Positions 8,438-64,000 are shown, counted from the stretch's first letter. The stretch is 64,000 bases of DNA from Minisyncoccota bacterium (GCA_028695415.1 JAQVIY010000002.1:4883-68882); one strand, 5' to 3'. The notes: generated from the sequence alone by a model not told the origin. Program-made: numbers and translations.

Positions 8438-8570
8438 AACTTTCCACAAGTCGCATCTGCTTCGTTGCAGACTCCGCTCCTCCCTTACCGTACCGACCAA
8501 GTACGGCTCGGTGCGGTGCTCGCTTGCACCTTGCATCTGCAAGCTTGCGGCGCGTTCTACGATCCGAGGT

Positions 8571-8845: not shown

Positions 8846-9481
8846 ATGGACGAACACCTGCACAGCGGAGAGATGGATTTGCCTGAGGAGATTGGTATGG
8901 CAGATATCGCTCCTTCGATGCCGAAGGAGATTCACGATGAAGTGGCTCCGAACAAAGAGGATGCGCGCTGGTACACCATTCATACGTACGCGGGTTATGA
9001 GAACGCTGTCGAGCGCAACTTGAAACAGCGCATCGAATCGCTCGGTATGGAGGGGAAAATATTCGACGTTATCGTGCCGACTGAGAAGAAGATCCGCGTG
9101 AAAGGCGGCAAGCGTATCGTCGAAGAAGAGAAGATTTACCCGGGCTACATCCTCGTGCGTATGATTGTGGACGACGATTCGTGGTTTGTGGTGCGTAATA
9201 CCCCGAGAGTGACCGGCTTCGTTGGCTCTGGTAATACGCCGGTCCCGATGGAGGAAACCGAAGTCGCGACGCTTATGAAGCGTATGACTGCGGAGGCGCC
9301 GAAGCACCGCATCGACCTCGTGAAGGACGACCCTATCGTCATCGCCGACGGCCCGTTCAAGGACTTGGAGGGCAAGGTGGGCGAGATAGACGAAGATCGC
9401 GGAAAGGTGAAGGTGATGGTCTCGATGTTCGGTCGCGAGACGCCGGTCGAGCTCGATTTCCTCCAGATACGGAAACTGTAA
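8846..9481 (+). CDS. nusG: transcription termination/antitermination factor NusG with acidic N-terminal extension
   Basis: NGN domain (WYTIHTYAGYENAV..) and KOW domain (GDGPFKDLEGKVGEIDEDRGKVKVMVSMFGRETPVELDFLQI). About 35 extra N-terminal residues. Confidence 0.9.
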   Translation: MDEHLHSGEMDLPEEIGMADIAPSMPKEIHDEVAPNKEDARWYTIHTYAGYENAVERNLKQRIESLGMEGKIFDVIVPTEKKIRVKGGKRIVEEEKIYPGYILVRMIVDDDSWFVVRNTPRVTGFVGSGNTPVPMEETEVATLMKRMTAEAPKHRIDLVKDDPIVIADGPFKDLEGKVGEIDEDRGKVKVMVSMFGRETPVELDFLQIRKL

Positions 9482-46759: not shown

Positions 46760-47727
46760 GTTCCTCCTCCAAAACCGCCCCCTTTCTAGAGGGGGCGGTT
46801 TTGTGTTGACAGGGATTTCTGCGTACCCTATACTCCTTCTACGTGTCTACGAACCGAAAACTTTCTTACTTAGGAGCGGATAGGCCGTAAGGCCGCGCGC
46901 GTTGCAAAACGCACGAAAACCGCCCCGAGGGGCGGTTTTCGTTTCAAAAAGGGACACGGGAATCTTTGACATACGAATACGCATAGGTAATTGAAAGCTC
47001 CGTGGCTCACCGCTACGGAGCATCAAAGTGCAGATAGTAATGGTTGTGGTAACCAGAATTCCGTGCGAGAGACAGTAAGAGTACACGGTGGATGCCTTGG
47101 CCTAGGACGGCGAAGAAGGACGCGACTAACCTGCGATAAGCTTCGGGGAGGCGGTTTGTAGCCTTTGATCCGGAGATGTCCGAATGGGGAAACCCTACAG
47201 TTTTGAACTGTAATCCGCGGGGTAACGCCCGCGCGAAGCGAACCCTGGGAAGTGAAACATCTCAGTACCAGGAGGAAAAGAGAACAATATGAATTGCGTT
47301 CTCTTCAAGCATTATGTTTGTTTGAAGGGAACGCGATTCTCGTGATACCCCGAGTAGCGGCGAGCGAAAAGGGAAAAGCCCAAACCCGCACACTCACTTT
47401 GCCATTGTGCCTAACGTTGTTCAGAAGAATCAACTTCTGGACGCGCGTGGCCCAATGGAACGTTTGAGTATCAACTACGTCAGTTGGCACAAGAACAACG
47501 ATGGCAAAGTGAGTGTGCGGGGGTTGTAAGATGCGAACATTCCGATTTATCGGTAAAGAGTTATCAATCGTCTATATAGCGGAAGCTGCTGGGAAGCAGC
47601 GCCCCAGAGGGTAATGGCCCCGTACGCGAAATGTATGACGACTCTTGTTTGTATTCTTGAGTAGTTCGAGACACGAGTAGCTCGAATGAATCTGCCGGAA
47701 CTAACCGGTAAGGCTAAACACGTCCTA

Positions 47728-47774
<47 letters not shown>

Positions 47775-49389
47775 GAGAGGGGAGTGAAATAGAACTGAAA
47801 CCGTGTACTTACAAGGGGTCGGAGCGGTGCACCATACAGCACTTGTGCTGTCTCGTGCTTGATTAAGCAGGGCGAAACTTGATAAGGACTTAGATTTGGG
47901 CGTGCGTACGGACAACAAACTCCATACGCAGTAAGCCAGGCGTTGAGCCGTCTAAGATAACTGTCAGGTGCCCTCCTTAATCATGTACGAGTGTTGTATG
48001 GTGCACCGTGACGGCATGCCTATTGAAGAATGAGCCGGCGAGTGTATATATCTTGCGTAGCTAAGTCCTTACGGGGCGGAGCTTAAGGGAAACCGAGCGT
48101 GAATAGCGCGATTGTAGGATATATACGACCCGAAGCCAGATGAGCTTGCCATGAGCAGGGTGAAGTTTGTCGAAAGACAGATGGAGGCCCGAACCCGTTG
48201 GTCGTACAACGCCTTGGGATGACTTGTGGCAAGGAGTGAAAAGCTAATCGAATCTGGGAATAGCTGGTTCTCTCCGAAACAGCTTTTGGGCTGGCGTCGC
48301 CATATGTGTGCATGGGGGTAGAGCACTGGAAGGGATCAACAGGGAGAAATCTCGTGATTCCTATCAAACTCCGAATACCATGTACCCGGGCGGCAGTTAG
48401 AAGGTGGGGGCGAAGCTCCATCGATCGAGAGGGGAAGAGCCCTGATCGCAAATTAAGGCCCCTAAATCAACGCTCAGTACATCCACAAGGAAGTGAGGAC
48501 TCATAGACAGTGAGGATGTTGGCTTAGAAGCAGCCACCATTCAAAGAAAGCGTAACAGCTCACTCATCGAGAGTCCTTGCGCCGAAGATGATCGGGGTTA
48601 AGCGTTGTGCCGAAATTGCGGGTTTGTGTTTATTCCGATAAATACAAGCGGTAGGAGAGTGTTCTGTTCGCGATGAAGCTTAAGGGGTAACCCGTGGTGG
48701 AGCGTACAGAAGTAAGAATGCCGGTACAAGTAACCACAACGCGGGTGAGAACCCCGCGCGTCGAAAGATCAAGGTTTCCTCAGCTATGGTGATCAACTGA
48801 GGGTTAGTCGGGCCTAAGGGGATGGCGAGAGCCGCACCCGATGGACACAGGGTTAATATTCCCTGACCGTTTTTAGAGGCTATGGAGTGACGGACTGCTG
48901 TATGTGCTGCCCATTATTGGATTTGGGTCGGCTTGGTGAGGAAGCGCGTTAGGCAAATCCGGCGCGCATTATTCCGAGCTGAGTCGCAATTTCCTCCTAC
49001 GGGGGGAGAGAGGGTGCAAAGCGCGGTTCCAAGAAAATCTTCTACGCATCAACTCTAAAGATGACCGTACCGTAAACCGACACAGGTGATCAGGTCGAGC
49101 AGACCAAGACGAACGAGTAAGAGGTCCTCAAGGAACTCGGCAAACAAGCGGCCGTAAGTTAGCGATAAGGCCTGCCTCCTGCCTGCAAGGGCGGGAGGCC
49201 GCAGCGAAAGTTTTCCTATCAACTGTTTACCAAAAACACAGCTCCCTGCAAACTCGTAAGAGGAAGTATAGGGGGTGACACCTGACCAATGCCGGAAGGT
49301 TAACCACGGTGGGTGGTATGTCGCAAGATGTACTGCTGGACTGTGTAAGCCCCGGTGAATGTCGGCGATAACTATAATCGTCCTAAGGT

Positions 49390-49902
49390 TCCGGGCGCGA
49401 CGAGAGTCGTGCTCGGAAGGACTAGGACGATTGTAGCGGTAAACATACACAAGCTGCCTTGCTGCGCAGTAATGCGCGGATTAGTCCACATGGCTATATG
49501 CTGGGAAGCGCGGAAGCGCGATCAGCAGGGAAGATTCGTGAACTTCACAGAGGAGAATAATCCTCAAAGATATAAGTTGGGTTGGTGTAATAATCAATCA
49601 AAGAGACAGGCATAGACAGCGAGGAGGTGGGCTTAAGAGCAGCCACCCTTTGAAGAGAGCGTTATAGCTCACTCGTCGAGTCGGTCAGACGTGGTTGATA
49701 GCATAAGAAGACATTTGGCCTTGCCTGCGTGCAAGGGACAACCAGTGCCTTCAAGACGTCGGACCAGTTTCGACACCCATCTTATACCCTAGGGAATGAC
49801 TACATTCCCTCTTCTGTGAAGTTCACGAAAACCCTCAGAGACCAAACGCCATACTCCTATTCGTAGGAGCAAGATAGAGTCCAAAGGTTGAAAGGAACCT
49901 AG
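49390..49902 (+). mobile_element. 23S insertion 1: ORF-less group I-like intron after the position equivalent to E. coli U1931 (helix 69/71 region)
   Basis: 5' exon ends CCTAAGGT (U). Insertion ends ...CCTAG (G). Exon resumes AGCGTAATTCCTTGTCGGG. Contains a roughly 20-bp long-range inverted repeat (49536-49557 with 49810-49830) and a roughly 75-nt segment near-identical to 23S 48510-48585. Confidence 0.6.
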
Positions 49903-50810
49903 AGCGTAATTCCTTGTCGGGTAAGTTCCGACGTGCACGAATGGTGTAATGAGTGGGAAACTGTCTCGAGGACTCGCTCGGTGAAAATGCACTTCCGGTG
50001 AAGATGCCGGATACCTGTAGTTAGACGAAAAGACCCCAGGAGCTTTACTATAGCTTCGTATTGGCACTGCGGGATTCATGCGTAGCATAGGTGGGAGGAT
50101 TTGAAGCATTGGTTTCGGCTGGTGTGGATCCGTCAGTGAAATACCACTCTTGAATTTTGCAGTGTCTAACCCCGTGAGCGTAACTCACGGGGGACCGTGC
50201 GTGGCAGGTAGTTTTGGTGGGGCGCTATCCTCCTAAAAAGTAACGGAGGAGTCTATTAAGGTTCTCTAGGCGCGAATGGAAACCGTGCCGATAGTGTAAT
50301 GGCATAAGAGAGCTTAACTGTAAGGGGTACATCCCGAGCAGATGCGAAAGCAGAGCATAGTGAACCGATGGTACGCCTTAGATGCGGCCAGAGATTAACG
50401 GATATAAGTTACCCTGGGGATAACAGGCTAGTTCCGCCCAAGCGTCCATAGCGACGGCGGAGTTCGGCACCTCGATGTCGGCTCACCTTAGCGCGGGGCT
50501 GGAGAAGGTCCCAAGCGTATGGCTGTTCGCCATTTAAAAAGGTACGCGAGCTGGGTTCAAACCGTTCAGCAACTGACTTCGGTCGGTGATTGAACGGTTT
50601 GAACCCCGAGGCAAATGTTAGCTACGTGGAGACGTAGTGTGAATAAACGACAACTCACGGCGGTCTCGACTAGGAATAGTCGAGAAGCAAATCAACTGAT
50701 ATCGGTGGAACCCAGCCCCAGTTTTAAAATGCATAAAACTGGAGCTGGGCAATACCGAGGGAATTTGTCTTATGTGCTTCATTGAGGAATGTTCTTTGAG
50801 AATGTATTGC

Positions 50811-50887
50811 GGAGAAGTCGCCAAGCGGTTAAGGCACCAGACTTTCAAATCTGGCATGCGAAGGTTCGAACCCTTCCTTCTCCTCCA
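50811..50887 (+). ncRNA. tRNA-Gln-like element with 8-nt anticodon loop (CTTTCAAA) and encoded CCA, nested in 23S intron 2 inside a 19-bp inverted repeat
   Basis: Acceptor GGAGAAG/CTTCTCC, D arm GCCAAGCGGTTAAGGC (as in bacterial tRNA-Gln), anticodon stem CCAGA/TCTGG, variable CATGC, T arm GAAGG-TTCGAAC-CCTTC, discriminator T plus CCA. Flanked by CTTATGTGCTTCATTGAGGA (50769-50788) and its complement (50914-50932). Confidence 0.5.
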
Positions 50888-51212: not shown

Positions 51213-52068
51213 AAAATATTGCTACTTCAGAGAGAGATCTCTGATGACAACGCTGCTTATAACGGTGGAGTCTAAGGCGCTTCTGGTTTTAGAGGTCGAT
51301 ATCCGACGGTCCAGTGGATATTGACCTCGCTTGAGGACCAGAATGACGCTATGATAATACCGTGGGAAGTCGATTAAGTATTACCAATGCAGATCTCGCG
51401 TATATCGCGGGCTTCTTGGATGGAGATGGAAGTCTCATGTTCCAATTAAAGAAGCGCGCAGATTCGACCAAAGGAGTGCGTTTTATGGCGACGATATGTC
51501 TTTATCAAGATACTCGCCATGATGCGCCGCTCTCGTGGATTCGAACGCGACTCAAATGCGGCTATGTTTCTAAACGGAACGATGGCATGACAGAATTACG
51601 CATCAATGGCTTCTCTCAAGTGAGGGAGACCGTAGAAGCGCTTCTGCCGTATCTTCGTTTCAAGAAGAAACAAGCAAGACTACTCATTCGGGCATGTAAA
51701 TTGCTCGAACAAGAGACGCTCCGCACCATGAAGTCGAGAGATATACGAAAGATTGTTGATTTGCTGTTGCTCATACAGAATGAAAACTATATGAGCAAAA
51801 AGCGAAAGACGAAAGAAGAACTGCATCACATGCTTGGTTTGACCCCGTAACGACTTACGTTGAAAGATACGTGGACTCATAGGTAGAGGAATCGTTCCGC
51901 AGGCAGCTCGCTAACGCGACTGCACTTGGATTTTCTAAAGCGGAGTACCGCTAAGAAAATCTCGGCGAGAACGACAGCTCCTATGGGTAAGATGCAGCCA
52001 TCCTAACTTCGCACAGGCGGAAAAGGATGAAGATATAGTCTGAGCTCCTGGAAACAGGGGAAGTATCG
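51213..52068 (+). mobile_element. 23S insertion 3: group I intron carrying a LAGLIDADG homing endonuclease ORF, inserted on the 5' side of the sarcin-ricin loop (E. coli about 2656/2657)
   Basis: Joining exons gives CCCTAGT|ACGAGAGGACCGG, matching CCTAGTACGAGAGGACCGG. Intron ends in G. Conserved group I S-element AAGATATAGTC at 52030-52040. Confidence 0.7.
51362..51850 (+). CDS. single-motif LAGLIDADG homing endonuclease (I-CreI-like size, 162 aa) encoded within 23S intron 3
   Basis: LAYIAGFLDGDGSLMF motif. About 160 aa, typical of homodimeric LAGLIDADG enzymes. AT-rich compared with the rRNA exons. Confidence 0.75.
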   Translation: MGSRLSITNADLAYIAGFLDGDGSLMFQLKKRADSTKGVRFMATICLYQDTRHDAPLSWIRTRLKCGYVSKRNDGMTELRINGFSQVRETVEALLPYLRFKKKQARLLIRACKLLEQETLRTMKSRDIRKIVDLLLLIQNENYMSKKRKTKEELHHMLGLTP

Positions 52069-52420: not shown

Positions 52421-52539
52421 GGTTCTGGTGGTTCGGCGGCGGGGTCATACCCGTTCTCATTCCGAACACGGCAGTCAAGCCCGCTAGCGGCGATGGTACT
52501 CATCGTTTCAGATGGGGAGAGTAGCTAACCGCCAGAACC
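52421..52539 (+). rRNA. rrf: 5S ribosomal RNA
   Basis: Terminal helix GGTTCTGGTGG / CCGCCAGAACC. Internal CCGAACACGGCAGTCAAGCCC and AGATGGGGAGAGTAGC. Confidence 0.8.
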
Positions 52540-52722
52540 GAGTACTCGATATTTGTTTTTGAGATGTTTGTAATAATTGGATGGGGAGAGTAAGAAAGAA
52601 ACGCCTCGGAAGGCGTTTTTTCTTTCTGCTGCACTTGCTTCAAGAAAGCGAAAGAAGACTCTCGCTTTCTTTCGCTTCGTTTGCAGTAGCTAACCGCCAG
52701 AACCGAGTACTCGATTTTTGTT
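52521..52722. repeat. duplicated 5S 3'-end fragments bracketing an insertion of about 120 nt that contains a terminator hairpin
   Basis: GTAGCTAACCGCCAGAACCGAGTACTCGAT(A)TTTTGTT occurs at 52521-52560 and 52683-52722. GGATGGGGAGAGTA at 52581-52594 repeats 5S AGATGGGGAGAGTA. Hairpin AAACGCCTCGGAAGGCGTTTTTT at 52600-52622. Confidence 0.55.
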
Positions 52723-52735
52723 CCTTCAGATTAAG

Positions 52736-52840
52736 CGGGGTGTAGCTTAGGTAAGTTAAGTGCGGCAAGCACTCTGTCCTGGGTGACAACGTCCGGGAGC
52801 TGTACAGAGGACGCAGGTTCGAATCCTGTCACCCCGACCA
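52736..52840 (+). ncRNA. atypical tRNA-like gene (about 102 nt plus encoded CCA) followed by an intrinsic terminator
   Basis: 7-bp acceptor CGGGGTG/CACCCCG, discriminator A, CCA, canonical T arm GCAGG-TTCGAAT-CCTGT. About 27 extra nt relative to class I tRNAs. A possible CTG (Gln) anticodon-loop parse needs an enlarged D loop and a 21-nt insert. Terminator GCACGCCGCGC-TTGC-GCGCGGCGTTTT at 52842-52868. Confidence 0.45.
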
Positions 52841-58884: not shown

Positions 58885-59484
58885 ATGAGCAACGATACTG
58901 GCACCCTGCTTCCGTACATTGCCGCTCTCGCTCGGGCTGCAAGGAAGGGTATTCCTCTGCCGACTCTCGCCGACTTTTGCGCATACCTTAACCTGAGCGT
59001 GAAGCCCCTCGCTGCTGCCGTTTTGGCCGCGCTCGACACCATCCATATCGACCGCTCGACTCGTCCAGCCTATCCGTACTTTGTGGACAAGGACTGCATC
59101 AACGACCCGGACTTCATCGCACTTGAACAGACCGGCCCCGCCGACTACGCGCTCGGCAGCCTGGAGCAATATCTCCACGGCGCCCAGAAGACCGGCGGCT
59201 GGGAACGTGGCGAGGCAATCTACGAATATCTCAAGGGCAGCAACACGCTCTCGAGCTGTCTCGGCCTCGCCGATCTCCTCGCCATCCAGAAGCTCGGTAT
59301 CGAAGCCTTCCGCAAGCACTTCGCCAGCAAAGTAGTGTCCGGATGGAAATCGGTCGTCCGGGACCGCGACGGCAACCCGTTCGTTCCGTGCCTTGTCGAG
59401 GGCGATGGCGGGGTTGTACTGTTCTGGACGTGGTTCGAACGCGGCTGGAACAGTCGCAGCCCGGCGCTCCGCTTCGCAAGTTAG
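58885..59484 (+). CDS. hypothetical protein
   Basis: 199 aa, no recognisable motifs. Bracketed by 130-200 nt non-coding gaps. Confidence 0.35.
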   Translation: MSNDTGTLLPYIAALARAARKGIPLPTLADFCAYLNLSVKPLAAAVLAALDTIHIDRSTRPAYPYFVDKDCINDPDFIALEQTGPADYALGSLEQYLHGAQKTGGWERGEAIYEYLKGSNTLSSCLGLADLLAIQKLGIEAFRKHFASKVVSGWKSVVRDRDGNPFVPCLVEGDGGVVLFWTWFERGWNSRSPALRFAS

Positions 59485-59699: not shown

Positions 59700-61013
59700 A
59701 TGACTCGTTTCCGGGTGTCTGCCGTTGTTGCCCTCCTCGTGGGCTTTTTGCTTGCGTATTTCGTCTGGTCTACTGAAGCGAATCCACTCTCCTCATATCG
59801 CTTCAAGCTCGGCCTCGACCTCGCCGGGGGTACTGAGCTCGTCTACAAGGCTGATATGAGCCAGACGGCGACGAGCGAGCGCTCTGACGCTCTCGGAGCT
59901 CTCCAGGGGGTCATTGAGCGCCGTGTGAACATGTTTGGCGTCGCCGAGCCCCTCGTTCAGACCGAAGAGGTGAGCGCGCTCTCGGGCACCACCGAAGATC
60001 GGCTTATCGTCGATCTTCCTGGCGTGACCGATATCAAAGCGGCGGTTACCGCGCTTGGCGCGACACCGACCCTCGATTTTCGCATAGCAACGACCGCTGC
60101 TACCGGCACCTCGACCGAGGCGACGTTCATCCCGACCGGTCTCACCGGCCGCTATCTCGCGAGCGCCTCGCTCCAGTTCGGCTCGGGCGCGACCGCCGGT
60201 CTCGCGGCGCCGCAGGTGCTTCTCAATTTCAACAGCGAAGGTGCGAAACTTTTTGAAAAGATAACGAGTGAAAATATCGGACAGGTGCTCGCCATCTTCC
60301 TCGATGGTCAGCCTATCTCTACACCGGTTATTCAAGAAGCGATTCCGGGCGGACAAGCGACCATTAGCGGTAAGTTCACCGCGCCTGAGGCGCGCGATCT
60401 GGTACGCAATTTGAATTTCGGCGCGCTCCCGGTGCCCATCGAGCTTGAAAGCTCTTCCGCCGTCGGCCCGACTCTTGGCGCCGCGGCTATCAATGCGGGC
60501 GTCGTGGCTGGCATCATCGGCTTCGCTATCATCGCGCTCTTTATGATCGCGTGGTACCGCCTCCCGGGTGTTGTCGCGACGATTGCGCTCGCAGAGTACC
60601 TCGCCTTCATGCTCGCGATTATCAAAGTCATCCCCGTCACCCTTACCGCTTCGGGCATCGCCGGGCTCATCATTTCGGTCGGTATGGCGGTGGATGCAAA
60701 CGTGCTTATATTCGAGCGCACCAAGGAGGAACTCCGGGGCGGGAAGTCGCCGCGCGAAGCGGTGCATATCGGCTTCTCGCGCGCGTGGCCGGCTATCCGC
60801 GACGGCCACCTCACGATGATCATCTCGGGCGTCATCCTCTTCTGGCTCGGGACGAGTATCGTACAGGGCTTCGCGCTCGTATTCGTACTCGGCGTGCTCG
60901 CCTCGTTCGTATCGGCAGTGTCGCTCTCTCGCGTGTATCTCCTCGCTATCGTTCCCGAAGAGGGAGAGGGTGCGTGGAAGTTCCTCTTGAGCTCCGGTTT
61001 TCGTAAACACTAA
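59700..61013 (+). CDS. secD: protein-export membrane protein SecD
   Basis: N-terminal TM, large periplasmic domain, six C-terminal TM helices with SecD/F motifs (LAGIIGFAIIALFMIAWYR). Confidence 0.85.
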   Translation: MTRFRVSAVVALLVGFLLAYFVWSTEANPLSSYRFKLGLDLAGGTELVYKADMSQTATSERSDALGALQGVIERRVNMFGVAEPLVQTEEVSALSGTTEDRLIVDLPGVTDIKAAVTALGATPTLDFRIATTAATGTSTEATFIPTGLTGRYLASASLQFGSGATAGLAAPQVLLNFNSEGAKLFEKITSENIGQVLAIFLDGQPISTPVIQEAIPGGQATISGKFTAPEARDLVRNLNFGALPVPIELESSSAVGPTLGAAAINAGVVAGIIGFAIIALFMIAWYRLPGVVATIALAEYLAFMLAIIKVIPVTLTASGIAGLIISVGMAVDANVLIFERTKEELRGGKSPREAVHIGFSRAWPAIRDGHLTMIISGVILFWLGTSIVQGFALVFVLGVLASFVSAVSLSRVYLLAIVPEEGEGAWKFLLSSGFRKH

Positions 61014-61016
61014 TTT

Positions 61017-61913
61017 ATGTTCATCATCAACCATCGCGGTTTCTTCTTCTGGCTTACGGGGCTTATCCTCGCTGGCGTTATCGGCGCGATAGTCGTCTGG
61101 GGTCTCCCGCTCGGCATTGACTTCACCGGCGGCTCTTTGATGCAGGTGTCGTACGAGAACGGTCGGCCGGCGCTTACGGATATTGAAAAGCAGATTACTC
61201 CTGTGGGACTCGGCACGATCTCGGTGCGCGCATCAGGTGACCGTGCAGTCGCTATACGCACCCGCTCACAGACGCCCGGAGAGCATGAGGCTATCCTCGG
61301 AGCGCTCTCAGCAAACGCATCAACGACTGAAGTTGCGTACACTTCGGTCGGTCCTGCGCTCGGGAGCCAGTTCACTCACAAGGCGGTATGGGCGATTCTC
61401 GCCGTCGTGCTCGTCATCATGCTCTACATCGCGTTCGCCTTCCGTCGTGTATCCGGCCCGGTTCCAGGCTGGGGCTACGGCTTCACGGTCGTCGCGATGC
61501 TCGCTATCGATATCATCGTGCCGACCGGCTTCTATGCCGCATATGCGCATTTCACCGGTGCAGAGGTCGATTCGCTCTTCATTGTCGCCCTCCTCTCGCT
61601 TTTGGGCTACTGTGTGAATGATGTCATTGTCATCTTCGATCGTGTTCGCGAGCACCTTGCGAAGAACGAGCGCGAGAATAATAAAGAACCGTTTGAGGAG
61701 ACGATAGGGAAGTCTATTAGTGAGACGATGACGCGCTCTATAAACACTGCGCTCACCGTCGTGCTCGCGCTCATCGCCCTCATCTATTTCGGCGCAGAGA
61801 CCACACGCAACTTCGCACTCGTGATGCTTGTGGGTATCGTCGCAGGCACCTTCTCCTCGATCGCGCGCTCCGCGCCGCTCCTCATCCCGATTGCAAAGTG
61901 GTTTAAGAAATGA
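61017..61913 (+). CDS. secF: protein-export membrane protein SecF
   Basis: Six TM helices, conserved SecF region (LGYCVNDVIVIFDRVRE). The last 21 codons lie within a 65-bp sequence that is repeated at 62461. Confidence 0.85.
   Translation: MFIINHRGFFFWLTGLILAGVIGAIVVWGLPLGIDFTGGSLMQVSYENGRPALTDIEKQITPVGLGTISVRASGDRAVAIRTRSQTPGEHEAILGALSANASTTEVAYTSVGPALGSQFTHKAVWAILAVVLVIMLYIAFAFRRVSGPVPGWGYGFTVVAMLAIDIIVPTGFYAAYAHFTGAEVDSLFIVALLSLLGYCVNDVIVIFDRVREHLAKNERENNKEPFEETIGKSISETMTRSINTALTVVLALIALIYFGAETTRNFALVMLVGIVAGTFSSIARSAPLLIPIAKWFKK
61847..61911. repeat. 65-bp direct repeat, copy 1 (3' end of secF)
   Basis: CACCTTCTCCTCGATCGCGCGCTCCGCGCCGCTCCTCATCCCGATTGCAAAGTGGTTTAAGAAAT, identical to 62461-62525. 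Confidence 0.85.
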
Positions 61914-62458
61914 ACATGTTTGAGAAATTTCGGAAGGGTACAAAAGAAAGTAGCGAAAATAACGATCCGGAAGCGGTACGCAAAGCAGAAATAGAAAAAA
62001 TATACGGCACGGTCTTTGTCGTGGAGTCCAGTCAAGATATGTCGTTCGAAAATCTTATTTCCTCTGCGGGTGTGACGAATGTCGATTCAAGAATTACAGA
62101 AGAGAAGTTCCCCCGTCTCGAGCGATTGGGCAGTTCCAATATGCAGGTTGTCGCAAGTGCTCGCGACTCTTTTATTGAAGACACGCTTGGGTATTTAGAA
62201 AAAGAGGGGCAACACCCCGCGACAATTCATGATCTTCTCGAGTTCATGCCACAGTGCCCTGAGTTAGTATGGCGACTGTGTGCACTCGGCTCACTTGTAG
62301 ACGAAGATAATAAAAAGTTTTGTGTTGTGGTTGTAAAGAAAGAAGGTAACGTATCATTATCTCTTCAAGAACTCGGTCAAGAAACTTTTCGGGATGGGGT
62401 TACGCATTACTATACTCCATGGCCAGCTTCACTTCTCACGGTGCAGAATGTTCAATGA
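61910..62458 (+). CDS. hypothetical protein (182 aa) on a low-GC insert between the two 65-bp repeats
   Basis: ATG overlaps the secF TGA (AATGAACATG). AT-rich compared with secDF. No recognisable domain. Terminator at 62538-62578. Confidence 0.5.
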   Translation: MNMFEKFRKGTKESSENNDPEAVRKAEIEKIYGTVFVVESSQDMSFENLISSAGVTNVDSRITEEKFPRLERLGSSNMQVVASARDSFIEDTLGYLEKEGQHPATIHDLLEFMPQCPELVWRLCALGSLVDEDNKKFCVVVVKKEGNVSLSLQELGQETFRDGVTHYYTPWPASLLTVQNVQ

Positions 62459-62460
62459 AG

Positions 62461-62525
62461 CACCTTCTCCTCGATCGCGCGCTCCGCGCCGCTCCTCATC
62501 CCGATTGCAAAGTGGTTTAAGAAAT
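62461..62525. repeat. 65-bp direct repeat, copy 2
   Basis: Exact copy of 61847-61911. Would encode the native SecF C-terminus ending KWFKK with a TAA stop. Confidence 0.85.
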
Positions 62526-62795
62526 AAGAAAGTTTTGAAAACAAAAAGCGGACTTCGTAAGTCCGCTTTTTGTTTTCAATAGGAGAGTGTCACTCGACAA
62601 ACACCAAACCGCTCATGCTTCGAGCGCATAAGGAGGCAAGGGGTGACGGCTTCATATATCATACGCTCCTCTATCTCGCGTGCAATCTTGGCAACGCATT
62701 TTTGTGTGTCAGGAATGGATAACCTTGATTTGTTTGCGGGTTGTGGTAATGTCTGTGTTGGATATCCTGTAGTTCAACCGAGAAGGAGATTGGAA

Positions 62796-63284: not shown

Positions 63285-64000
63285 AGTTTGATCCTAGCTC
63301 AGGGTGAATGCTGGCGGCGTGGATAAGTCATGCAAGTCAAGGGGGCCCGCAAGGGCAACCGGCAGACGAGGTAGTAACACGTAGGTAGATCCCCCGAAGT
63401 CGGGCATAGCCAGTCGAAAGACTGGGTAATTCCCGATAGTCTCCTTCTTCGCTGTGTATTTCATCACAGCTACGAAGGACGCAGCCGCAAGGCCGTGTCC
63501 TCCGAAGCTCGGAATGGAATGTAGAGCGAAGGAGGAGTAAAGGTTTTTCGCTTCGGGAGTCGCCTGCGCAGTATCAGCTAGTTGGTAGGGTAACGGCCTA
63601 CCAAGGCTACGACGCTTAGGGGAGCTGAGAGGCTGACCCCCACCGATGGAACTGCGACACGGTCCATACTCCTACGGGAGGCTGCAGACGAGAATATTCC
63701 GCAATGGACGAAAGTCTGACGGAGCGACGCCGCGTGATGGATGAAGTGCCTTGGTACGTAAACATCTTTTATCGGGGACGAAGTTTATTGACGGTACCCG
63801 ATGAATAAGGAGCTCCTAACTCTGTGCCAGCAGGAGCGGTAATACAGAGGCTCCAAGCATTACCCGGAATCACTGGGCGTAAAGGGTGTCTAGGCGGCCA
63901 TATTAGTCTTTCGTTAAATCTGCGGGCTCAACCTGCAGGCTGCGAGGGAAACGGTATGGCTCGAGGGCGTGAGAGGTGCACGGAACTCATGGTGGAGGGG
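63285..64000 (+). rRNA. rrs: 16S ribosomal RNA, 5' part (continues beyond the window)
   Basis: AGAGTTTGATCCTAGCTCAG at 63285, ACTCCTACGGGAGGCTGCAG, GTGCCAGCAGGAGCGGTAATAC (mismatch to universal 515F GTGCCAGCMGCCGCGGTAA), GGGCGTAAAGGG. Confidence 0.9.

Follow-up and report, generated by a model that had tools for sequence, protein, structure and literature searches.

How did a small, low-GC open reading frame (ORF) come to lie between two identical copies of the end of secF, a gene that is itself intact? We asked this of a 64,000-nt stretch of DNA, here called the window (positions 4883-68882 of JAQVIY010000002.1, assembly GCA_028695415.1), whose source is a contig of a short-read metagenome-assembled genome (MAG) of Candidatus Pacebacteria (Paceibacteria, candidate phyla radiation, CPR; locus tag prefix PHV99). 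An initial annotation had read the locus as a foreign gene cassette that duplicated its target site on entering the 3' end of secF. We find that the locus is one case of a recurring, recombination-type gain of small genes in this clade, not a transposon; and we favor, with a probability of roughly 0.55, a homology-anchored gain of the single-crossover type, in which incoming DNA of a related donor took the place of the resident secF tail.

The direct repeat at this locus is exact. It measures 66 nt instead of the 65 bp first reported, with one additional base on its left, and no longer direct repeat exists in the entire window; by our own arithmetic, a 66-nt exact match would be expected by chance about 1e-30 times in 64 kb. 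As the initial annotation had stated, the two copies are identical up to the context of the stop codon: identity ends at its T, which copy 1 continues as T|GA and copy 2 as T|AA. At the joint between the ORF and copy 2 there is no microhomology to the left of the repeat, the flanks of the two copies sharing no bases, and the outcome at the locus is a duplication, not a deletion of recipient DNA. The intervening segment is indeed AT-richer, but it spans 548 nt and not 549, and it consists almost exactly of one ORF of 180-182 aa, whose G+C content at third codon positions (GC3, 0.41 vs. 0.69-0.71 in secD and secF) is the lowest among 63 window ORFs (selected, non-overlapping, at least 100 aa). 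By C-terminal comparison, the ORF has lost the C-terminus of its family (…TK*) at the joint. Past its TGA, its reading frame stays in frame into copy 2 (…VQNVQ*STFSS…), which may be chance, as a one-in-three event.

Transposases produce target duplications that are short and of fixed length, about 2-14 bp. Neither a transposase nor an integrase is encoded in the insert, whose sole ORF has no Pfam, PHROG or PADLOC match; a search of the window for inverted repeats found no terminal inverted repeats at the insert ends; and the 66-nt repeat, which is plain secF coding sequence, has no attC-like fold and folds no better than its shuffles (z = 0.7 and 1.1). We therefore rejected a transposon or insertion sequence with target duplication (no transposase, no terminal inverted repeats, and duplications that measure 66 nt at this locus and 43-105 nt at the related loci described below), and with it the proposed target-site-duplicating cassette, since 66 nt lies far beyond transposase duplications. 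An integron cassette was rejected because the repeat is secF coding sequence and no attC-like palindromic structure is present. A phage or phage-satellite gene was likewise set aside (no PHROG match, no relatives of the family in IMG/VR, and weak BFVD fold matches to the ORF model), as was an origin in a diversity-generating retroelement (DGR), which the predicted lectin fold of the ORF product together with the repeats had prompted: the two copies do not differ and are part of secF, not of the ORF, and the family shows no variation at the ORF C-terminus.

We compared secF loci from 29 species representatives (SecF 60-89% identical), together with the closest database relative (L040/L041, 86%; loci of relatives carry L numbers throughout). 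No homologue of the ORF is encoded in those 29 loci or in L040/L041, and the lineages with the closest SecF (L040, L005, L029, L007 and L006) are among the ORF-less ones. In the nearest relatives (L040, L006, L007, L029 and L032), secF and its stop codon run straight into a hairpin of the AAAACAAAA…TTTTGTTTT type, the very arrangement found after copy 2 in the window, where the hairpin and its T-run start 9 nt past the repeat; this style of terminator is common to the window, L040 and L007. Because ORF-less relatives show the same junction, copy 2 is the native secF end, and compared with these nearest relatives the window has the ORF as additional DNA. Two claims of the initial annotation are thereby borne out, namely that copy 2 recreates the native SecF end with a TAA stop, and that the insertion sits at the end of secF, which we can now place exactly at the stop codon relative to the nearest ORF-less relatives. 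Window SecF is 86-87% identical to the closest database SecF, and the nearest neighbors of the whole gene are ORF-less lineages. Exact look-ups in the contig index (with the ORF, its NCBI 180-aa form and SecF) returned no record, and the exact 23-nt repeat pattern had 0 matches in the JGI metagenomes, so no conspecific site, empty or filled, was found.

The ORF nonetheless has orthologues, and these occupy the same place. Apart from the product of the window itself, the 5.8 billion proteins searched included only four close homologues (61-65% identity), and a metagenome scan added one further lineage at 72% identity from two samples (L034 and L035), giving six other metagenomic contigs from five distinct lineages (61-72%). 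Wherever upstream sequence is present (L001, L002, L003 and L034/L035), the ORF lies directly 3' of secF on the same strand, separated by a spacer of 8-17 nt, and the L004 orthologue probably does so too; in L002 and L004, the last 11 nt of the ORF overlap the end of a convergent AA_kinase-family gene (hereafter X). The SecF tree places the carriers at two separate positions, each next to ORF-less genomes, and the ORF is thus patchy among relatives yet site-fixed behind secF. A second or orphan secF tail was found neither in L001-L003 nor in 27 ORF-less loci. Since the orthologue adjoins secF without repeats in other lineages, the secF-ORF adjacency predates the event in the window. The claim that the gene is foreign therefore holds for its composition but not in the sense of a random arrival, orthologues being already established behind secF elsewhere. 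A native, repeat-free neighbor of secF, which the initial annotation had taken to speak against insertion, is what we see in L001-L003 and probably L004; it is, however, absent from ~30 relatives, and L034/L035 carry a diverged orphan end.

The same architecture recurs at other gene ends. Self-comparison of ~350 kb of related DNA revealed five further occurrences of a gene body with its tail, a small cassette, an orphan tail and native downstream sequence, at the 3' ends of folD, secF and X, with repeats of 43-105 nt and a cargo made up mostly of toxin-antitoxin pairs (Table 1). The folD|secD and secF|kinase junctions are hotspots that hold differing small cargo in different genomes. In L013, the insert encodes two proteins (179 aa and 433 aa), each of which has a hydrophobic N-terminal segment, and the orphan folD tail leads into the native folD-secD spacer. 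Where the copies have diverged (L034, L032 and L001), 22 of the 34 differences between attached and orphan copies fall at third codon positions (P = 2e-4 vs. random; ~0.03 vs. a rough expectation of duplication followed by decay), and the orphans contain 0 frameshifts or stops; going by these substitutions, the attached and orphan copies are two selected orthologous ends. Where the copies are perfect, the attached copy preserves the ORF length and carries a variant end (TGA/TAA in the window, ACA-TAA/ATC-TAA in L013), and the joint chance of obtaining both same-length variant ends by a blind staggered cut would be about 0.01.

We reasoned that the DNA brought in an orthologous gene end of its own, because of the third-position bias, the variant stop and last codons, and the existence of potential secF-ORF donors, which follows from the orthologues standing right after secF in L001, L002, L003, L034/L035 and probably L004. 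A single crossover calls for a repeat that is the secF tail and for a gene end already joined to its cargo; the former is what the window holds, and the latter is present in L001-L003, L034 and probably L004. The window lineage would originally have had secF, a TAA stop and the terminator, and the donor would have been a related member of the Paceibacteria with the ORF already directly behind secF, its DNA entering most plausibly by natural uptake. The incoming fragment, comprising the last ~66 nt of secF and the ORF, would have recombined via the short homologous gene end, either by a single-crossover (Campbell-type) event or by one-sided homologous recombination with one non-homologous joint (62459|62460), the intermediate being perhaps a circle or perhaps a linear fragment bridging sister chromosomes. 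Such an event would yield an intact secF (tail and TGA from, or shared with, the donor), the ORF as a third cistron, the resident 66-nt tail as an orphan, and the native terminator. As the copies are perfectly identical, the event would be recent or the donor nearly conspecific. Recombination of the RecA type or slippage between the copies would then remove the ORF and restore the native junction exactly; because the 66-nt perfect repeats permit precise loss of the ORF, heterogeneity for its presence and absence is predicted in the source population. The initial suggestion that the locus might flip between two states survives in this reduced form: with direct repeats the insert can be lost but cannot be inverted, and its return would require the excised circle or fresh DNA from a donor.

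It has to be weighed against this account that no donor or conspecific strain is among the sampled genomes (closest SecF 86-87%, and the exact-pattern scan empty), which leaves the donor hypothetical. Neither an imported or recombinant tract in the body of the window secF nor a clear donor signal in the 66-nt repeat was seen, and therefore either the crossover would have to lie within 66 nt, a short stretch for RecA, or the donor would have to be near-identical. The orphans in the window and in L034 begin only ~5-13 nt apart, and such near-coincident starts hint that some sites are preferred, which would not be expected if homology alone drove the event. Similarity to relatives gave an ambiguous answer as to which copy is native in L034, L032 and L001; the circularizing or bridging of a 0.6-kb fragment is a hypothetical step; and the low GC3 of the ORF in every host is unexplained by transfer among high-GC relatives alone.

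Four alternatives deserve consideration. The ORF could be an ancestral neighbor, inherited vertically behind secF and lost repeatedly elsewhere, with copy 2 made by a later local event: either DNA of an ORF-less relative, starting 66 nt inside secF and running on across the terminator and the rRNA leader, replaced the flank downstream of the ORF, or a template switch during replication placed a copy of the secF tail after the ORF. We consider this unlikely, even though pairwise identities of the ORF (63-74%) roughly track those of SecF (70-78%), the window pairs with the carrier L002 in the SecF tree, the family C-terminus of the ORF is truncated at the joint, and the absence of X from the window, with a 16S operon in its stead, indicates that the downstream flank was rearranged. 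The closest SecF lineages are all without the ORF, a GC3 of 0.35-0.44 in all hosts (vs. 0.65-0.78 in secF) argues against long residence, and copy 2 with its TAA and terminator forms an intact native junction that is most simply resident. Slightly less probable still is an integrase-dependent mini-element, comparable to a cis-mobilizable element (CIME), in which the 66 nt would be an att site and the ORF a non-autonomous cassette served by a recombinase encoded elsewhere. The two ends of the insert do carry direct repeats of the att type, made of the 3' end of a conserved gene that is thereby rebuilt (the classic attL/attR picture), the orphans of the window and L034 begin at nearly the same secF codon, and the ORF is always at one site. 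No recombinase was found, however, in the insert or among the scanned low-GC3 window ORFs, which are homing endonucleases; L001-L003 carry the ORF without a second att copy; the ends of three unrelated genes and the variable repeat length (43-105 nt) are ill-suited to one recombinase; and the repeat is without notable structure and the family absent from IMG/VR.

We regard as quite improbable a true long target-site duplication, by which a staggered double-strand break with nicks 66 nt apart would have been filled in and a foreign fragment end-joined. The perfect identity of the copies, the blunt joint without microhomology and an insert of almost exactly one ORF speak for such an event, but the insert would have had to start with GA by chance to recreate the stop codon, L013 would have needed equal luck, the diverged cases display orthologous rather than decaying ends, and the orthologues already behind secF elsewhere would be a coincidence under random capture. 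To an assembly artefact or mixed templates we assign a similarly small chance. Here the chromosomal site would be empty, and the repeat-ORF-repeat loop would stem from another strain living alongside, from a circle of 614 bp or from a collapsed tandem array; this draws on the short-read origin of the contig, in which perfect repeats make a graph loop of uncertain copy number and linkage, and on there being no independent assembly of the species. Against it, no k-mer of the joint from ORF end to copy 2 recurs in the secF body, so that this joint must have been present in real reads, and other assemblies contain diverged, unambiguous versions of the architecture, including one recovered from two samples (L034 and L035).

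Known systems resemble the favored single-crossover gain in part. Some integrative elements target gene 3' ends and bring a replacement end, as do phage 21 and e14 in icd, and ICESt1 and CIMEs in fda; these share with our locus the 3'-end direct repeats, the reconstituted gene and an orphan fragment at the far end, but they are kilobases long and have a dedicated integrase, whereas here we see 548 nt, no integrase and several target genes. Neisseria minimal mobile elements are variable genes between conserved flanks, exchanged by transformation; the fixed hotspots (folD|secD and secF|kinase), varied small cargo and likely competent lineage found here are similar, although those elements are exchanged through a crossover in each of the two flanks, and no gene end is duplicated in the process. 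In experiments with Escherichia coli, inserts flanked by 109-950-bp duplications of the homologous segment arose when a circular molecule recombined by a single crossover (PMC3240628). Such Campbell-type integration matches our locus in the direct copies of a shared segment flanking the insert, the intact target gene and reversibility via the copies; it differs in that here the homology is 43-105 nt, the unit is 0.6-2 kb without a replicon, the events are natural ones in CPR, and no circular intermediate is observed. Transformation-driven merodiploids have been described in Streptococcus pneumoniae (PMC3784515). Homology-facilitated illegitimate recombination (HFIR) in naturally transformable bacteria likewise combines one homologous anchor with one non-homologous joint and sets foreign DNA beside a conserved gene; typically, however, recipient DNA of about insert size is deleted and 3-10 bp of microhomology is seen at the joint (PMC3240628), as opposed to the duplication without visible microhomology found here. 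The closest described natural counterpart is the 3'-end displacement in rhs, cdi and type VI secretion system (T6SS) effector loci: orphaned ends are left behind in rhs, cdiA, mafB and T6SS effector loci, and HFIR is the proposed mechanism (PMC5361080). There, too, a new end arrives with its cargo, recombination takes place in the conserved upstream portion, and the resident end is shifted downstream, but those ends are polymorphic toxin domains with immunity genes, selected for toxin diversity, while ours are near-identical tails of housekeeping genes (secF, folD and the kinase) with an unrelated small gene or toxin-antitoxin cargo. We found no description of a gene-tail duplication pattern in CPR in the literature searched.

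What the ORF encodes was first annotated as a 182-aa protein with no recognizable domain, starting at an ATG that overlaps the secF stop. That overlapping ATG exists at 61910, but a second ATG at 61916 lies two bases past the TGA, and because all homologues begin MFEK- (MFEKF… in the window), the latter is the conserved start (180 aa, as in the NCBI annotation). Sequence-profile scans against Pfam, PHROGs, PADLOC, NCBIfam and PDB gave no match, in line with the annotation, yet an AlphaFold model from a 25-sequence alignment confidently adopts a C-type-lectin-like fold (predicted local distance difference test, pLDDT, 89.8). There are no paralogues within the window. The alignment of the family holds 82 invariant positions, a pattern that speaks for clear constraint, and GC3 stays at 0.35-0.44 in every host against 0.65-0.78 for secF; distant members (35-47% identity) occur in unrelated contexts on low-GC CPR contigs. 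The closest homologue (L034 5001-5547, the same in L035) has a 5-nt deletion near 5326, present in two independent metagenome assemblies, that shifts the frame and leaves two ORFs in place of one; as this copy is a pseudogene, the ORF is dispensable in that lineage.

No promoter-like site of the ORF's own was found on the + strand in our scan, and the ORF uses the native secDF terminator; for these two reasons it most likely serves as the third cistron of the secDF operon, with its translation coupled to that of secF. The terminator hairpin looks bidirectional. The usual next gene after secF or the ORF is X, which follows in ~20 relatives but is missing from the window; downstream of the terminator, the window has instead a putative rRNA leader motif common to L014, L018 and L031, and then the 16S gene. 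This conserved non-coding motif, CAAGGGGTGACGGCT…CATACGC…TGCAATCTTGGCAAC, lies at window 62636-62700 between the secDF terminator and 16S and also occurs downstream of secF in L014, L018 and L031; it may act as a leader or promoter of the rRNA operon.

Table 1. Features of the secF locus in the window, followed by gene-end duplications in related loci (positions are those of the window or of the locus named).
Feature	Position	Strand	Description
secD	59700..61013	+	First gene of the secDF operon; Pfam SecDF_P1_head, SecD_1st, SecD_SecF_C; syntenic with folD-secD-secF in L001, L034 and L040
secF	61017..61913	+	Intact, 298 aa, TGA stop; Pfam SecD_SecF_C, E = 7e-46
Repeat copy 1	61846..61911	+	Last 22 codons of secF (…GTFSSIARSAPLLIPIAKWFKK) and T of the stop codon; attached to the gene body; exact match to 62460-62525
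Inserted segment	61912..62459	+	548 nt, GAAC + ORF + A; GC 0.44; absent in nearest relatives (secF stop directly followed by terminator)
ORF180 (ORF182 if start 61910)	61916..62458	+	Predicted cytoplasmic protein with predicted C-type-lectin-like fold; probably co-transcribed and translationally coupled with secF
Novel non-homologous joint	62459..62460	+	ORF end/copy 2; leftward extension of identity 0
Repeat copy 2	62460..62527 (repeat to 62525)	+	Orphan secF 3' end with native TAA; 3' context is the native secF-stop-terminator junction of L040, L006, L007, L029 and L032
Native secDF terminator	62535..62579		Hairpin with 21-nt arms, 100% complementary, T/A runs on either side; from inverted-repeat and terminator scans
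secF tail, L034/L035			63 nt, 87%; order secF, ORF pseudogene, short X remnant, DUF4258/DUF2283 pair, orphan secF tail (in frame, …STFSSICRSAPLLIPIAKWFVRK*)
Cassette in L034	4912-6144		DUF4258/DUF2283 toxin-antitoxin pair between diverged duplicate secF 3' ends
folD tail, L001	1525-2325		52 nt, 88%, around Gp49/HigB-like + HTH_3 pair; orphan runs into the secD start codon
Gene X (kinase) tail, L032	512-1366		72-105 nt, 85%, around NTP_transf_2/HepT pair
folD 3' ends, L013	2481-2523 and 4587-4629		Perfect 43-nt copies around a 2.1-kb two-gene insert, just upstream of secD
Gene X remnants, L001 and L003			Short remnants next to ParE cassettes

CPR (Patescibacteria) have tiny genomes with few recognizable mobile elements, and their gain of accessory genes is poorly documented. 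We tentatively raise the idea, which we hold to be rather doubtful in this general form, of an integrase-free route in Paceibacteria, perhaps in CPR at large, whereby small promoterless cassettes joined to the last 40-100 nt of an essential gene as a portable homology arm insert by single crossover and can loop out as a small circle. Were this so, the cargo would include toxin-antitoxin pairs, the lectin-fold gene and other small genes; the essential gene would be kept intact and an orphan tail left; the folD|secD and secF|kinase junctions would be preferred docking sites; and the 66-nt case in the window would be a freshly made, still excisable example. The window locus and its five parallels in relatives have small cassettes docked at the 3' ends of housekeeping genes, with a duplicated gene tail left each time. 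Such a tail is a readable scar, searchable genome-wide to map recent gene gain; copy divergence can date the events, and DNA uptake with short-homology recombination becomes testable as the main route. The uncharacterized lectin-fold family, as a third secDF cistron in one clade, offers a starting point for asking what its product binds.

Further observations may be added. Between folD and secD the window holds a 199-aa ORF (ORF199, 58885-59484, +) with no Pfam or NCBIfam match and no flanking repeats; the nearest relative, L040, lacks it and has folD and secD separated by 46 nt, and ORF199 looks like another insertion at this second hotspot. The folD-secD hotspot of L022 is occupied by a DGR (2187-4654), with a variable repeat (VR, 2725-2818) at the 3' end of a 213-aa ORF, a template repeat (TR, 3158-3251) that differs at adenines and a reverse transcriptase (3644-4654; RVT_1, E = 1e-26). 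Similarity of ORF199 to the L022 DGR target, and of ORF182 to ORF199, was not significant. In L034, a 38-nt direct repeat (8483-8520 and 9181-9218, 89%) surrounds a RelE/ParE-like toxin with its antitoxin; we could not trace this repeat to a gene end.

Elsewhere in the window, low-GC3 ORFs resembling homing endonucleases lie at 2042-2734 (-, LAGLIDADG_3), 6335-6817 (+, HNH_3, below the Pfam cutoff) and, between 23S and 5S, 51362-51847 (+, LAGLIDADG_1). The 23S gene (47063-50606) is ~600 nt longer than the Rfam model, and a 70-nt segment of it (48502-48571) recurs at 49611-49680 (83%) inside an insertion. Transfer RNA genes lie at 50811-50884 and 52736-52837 (102 nt, possibly with an intron), and 5S at 52424-52537; 16S (from 63276), which seems to carry an insertion near 63440-63540, is ~10 kb downstream of 23S-5S rather than upstream. 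Finally, the last 18 nt of the 5S rRNA and the 20 nt downstream of it (52520-52557) are repeated 165 nt further on (52685-52722, 97%), bracketing ~127 nt with a hairpin. This arrangement, in which a duplicated gene end encloses a small insert, recalls that at secF.

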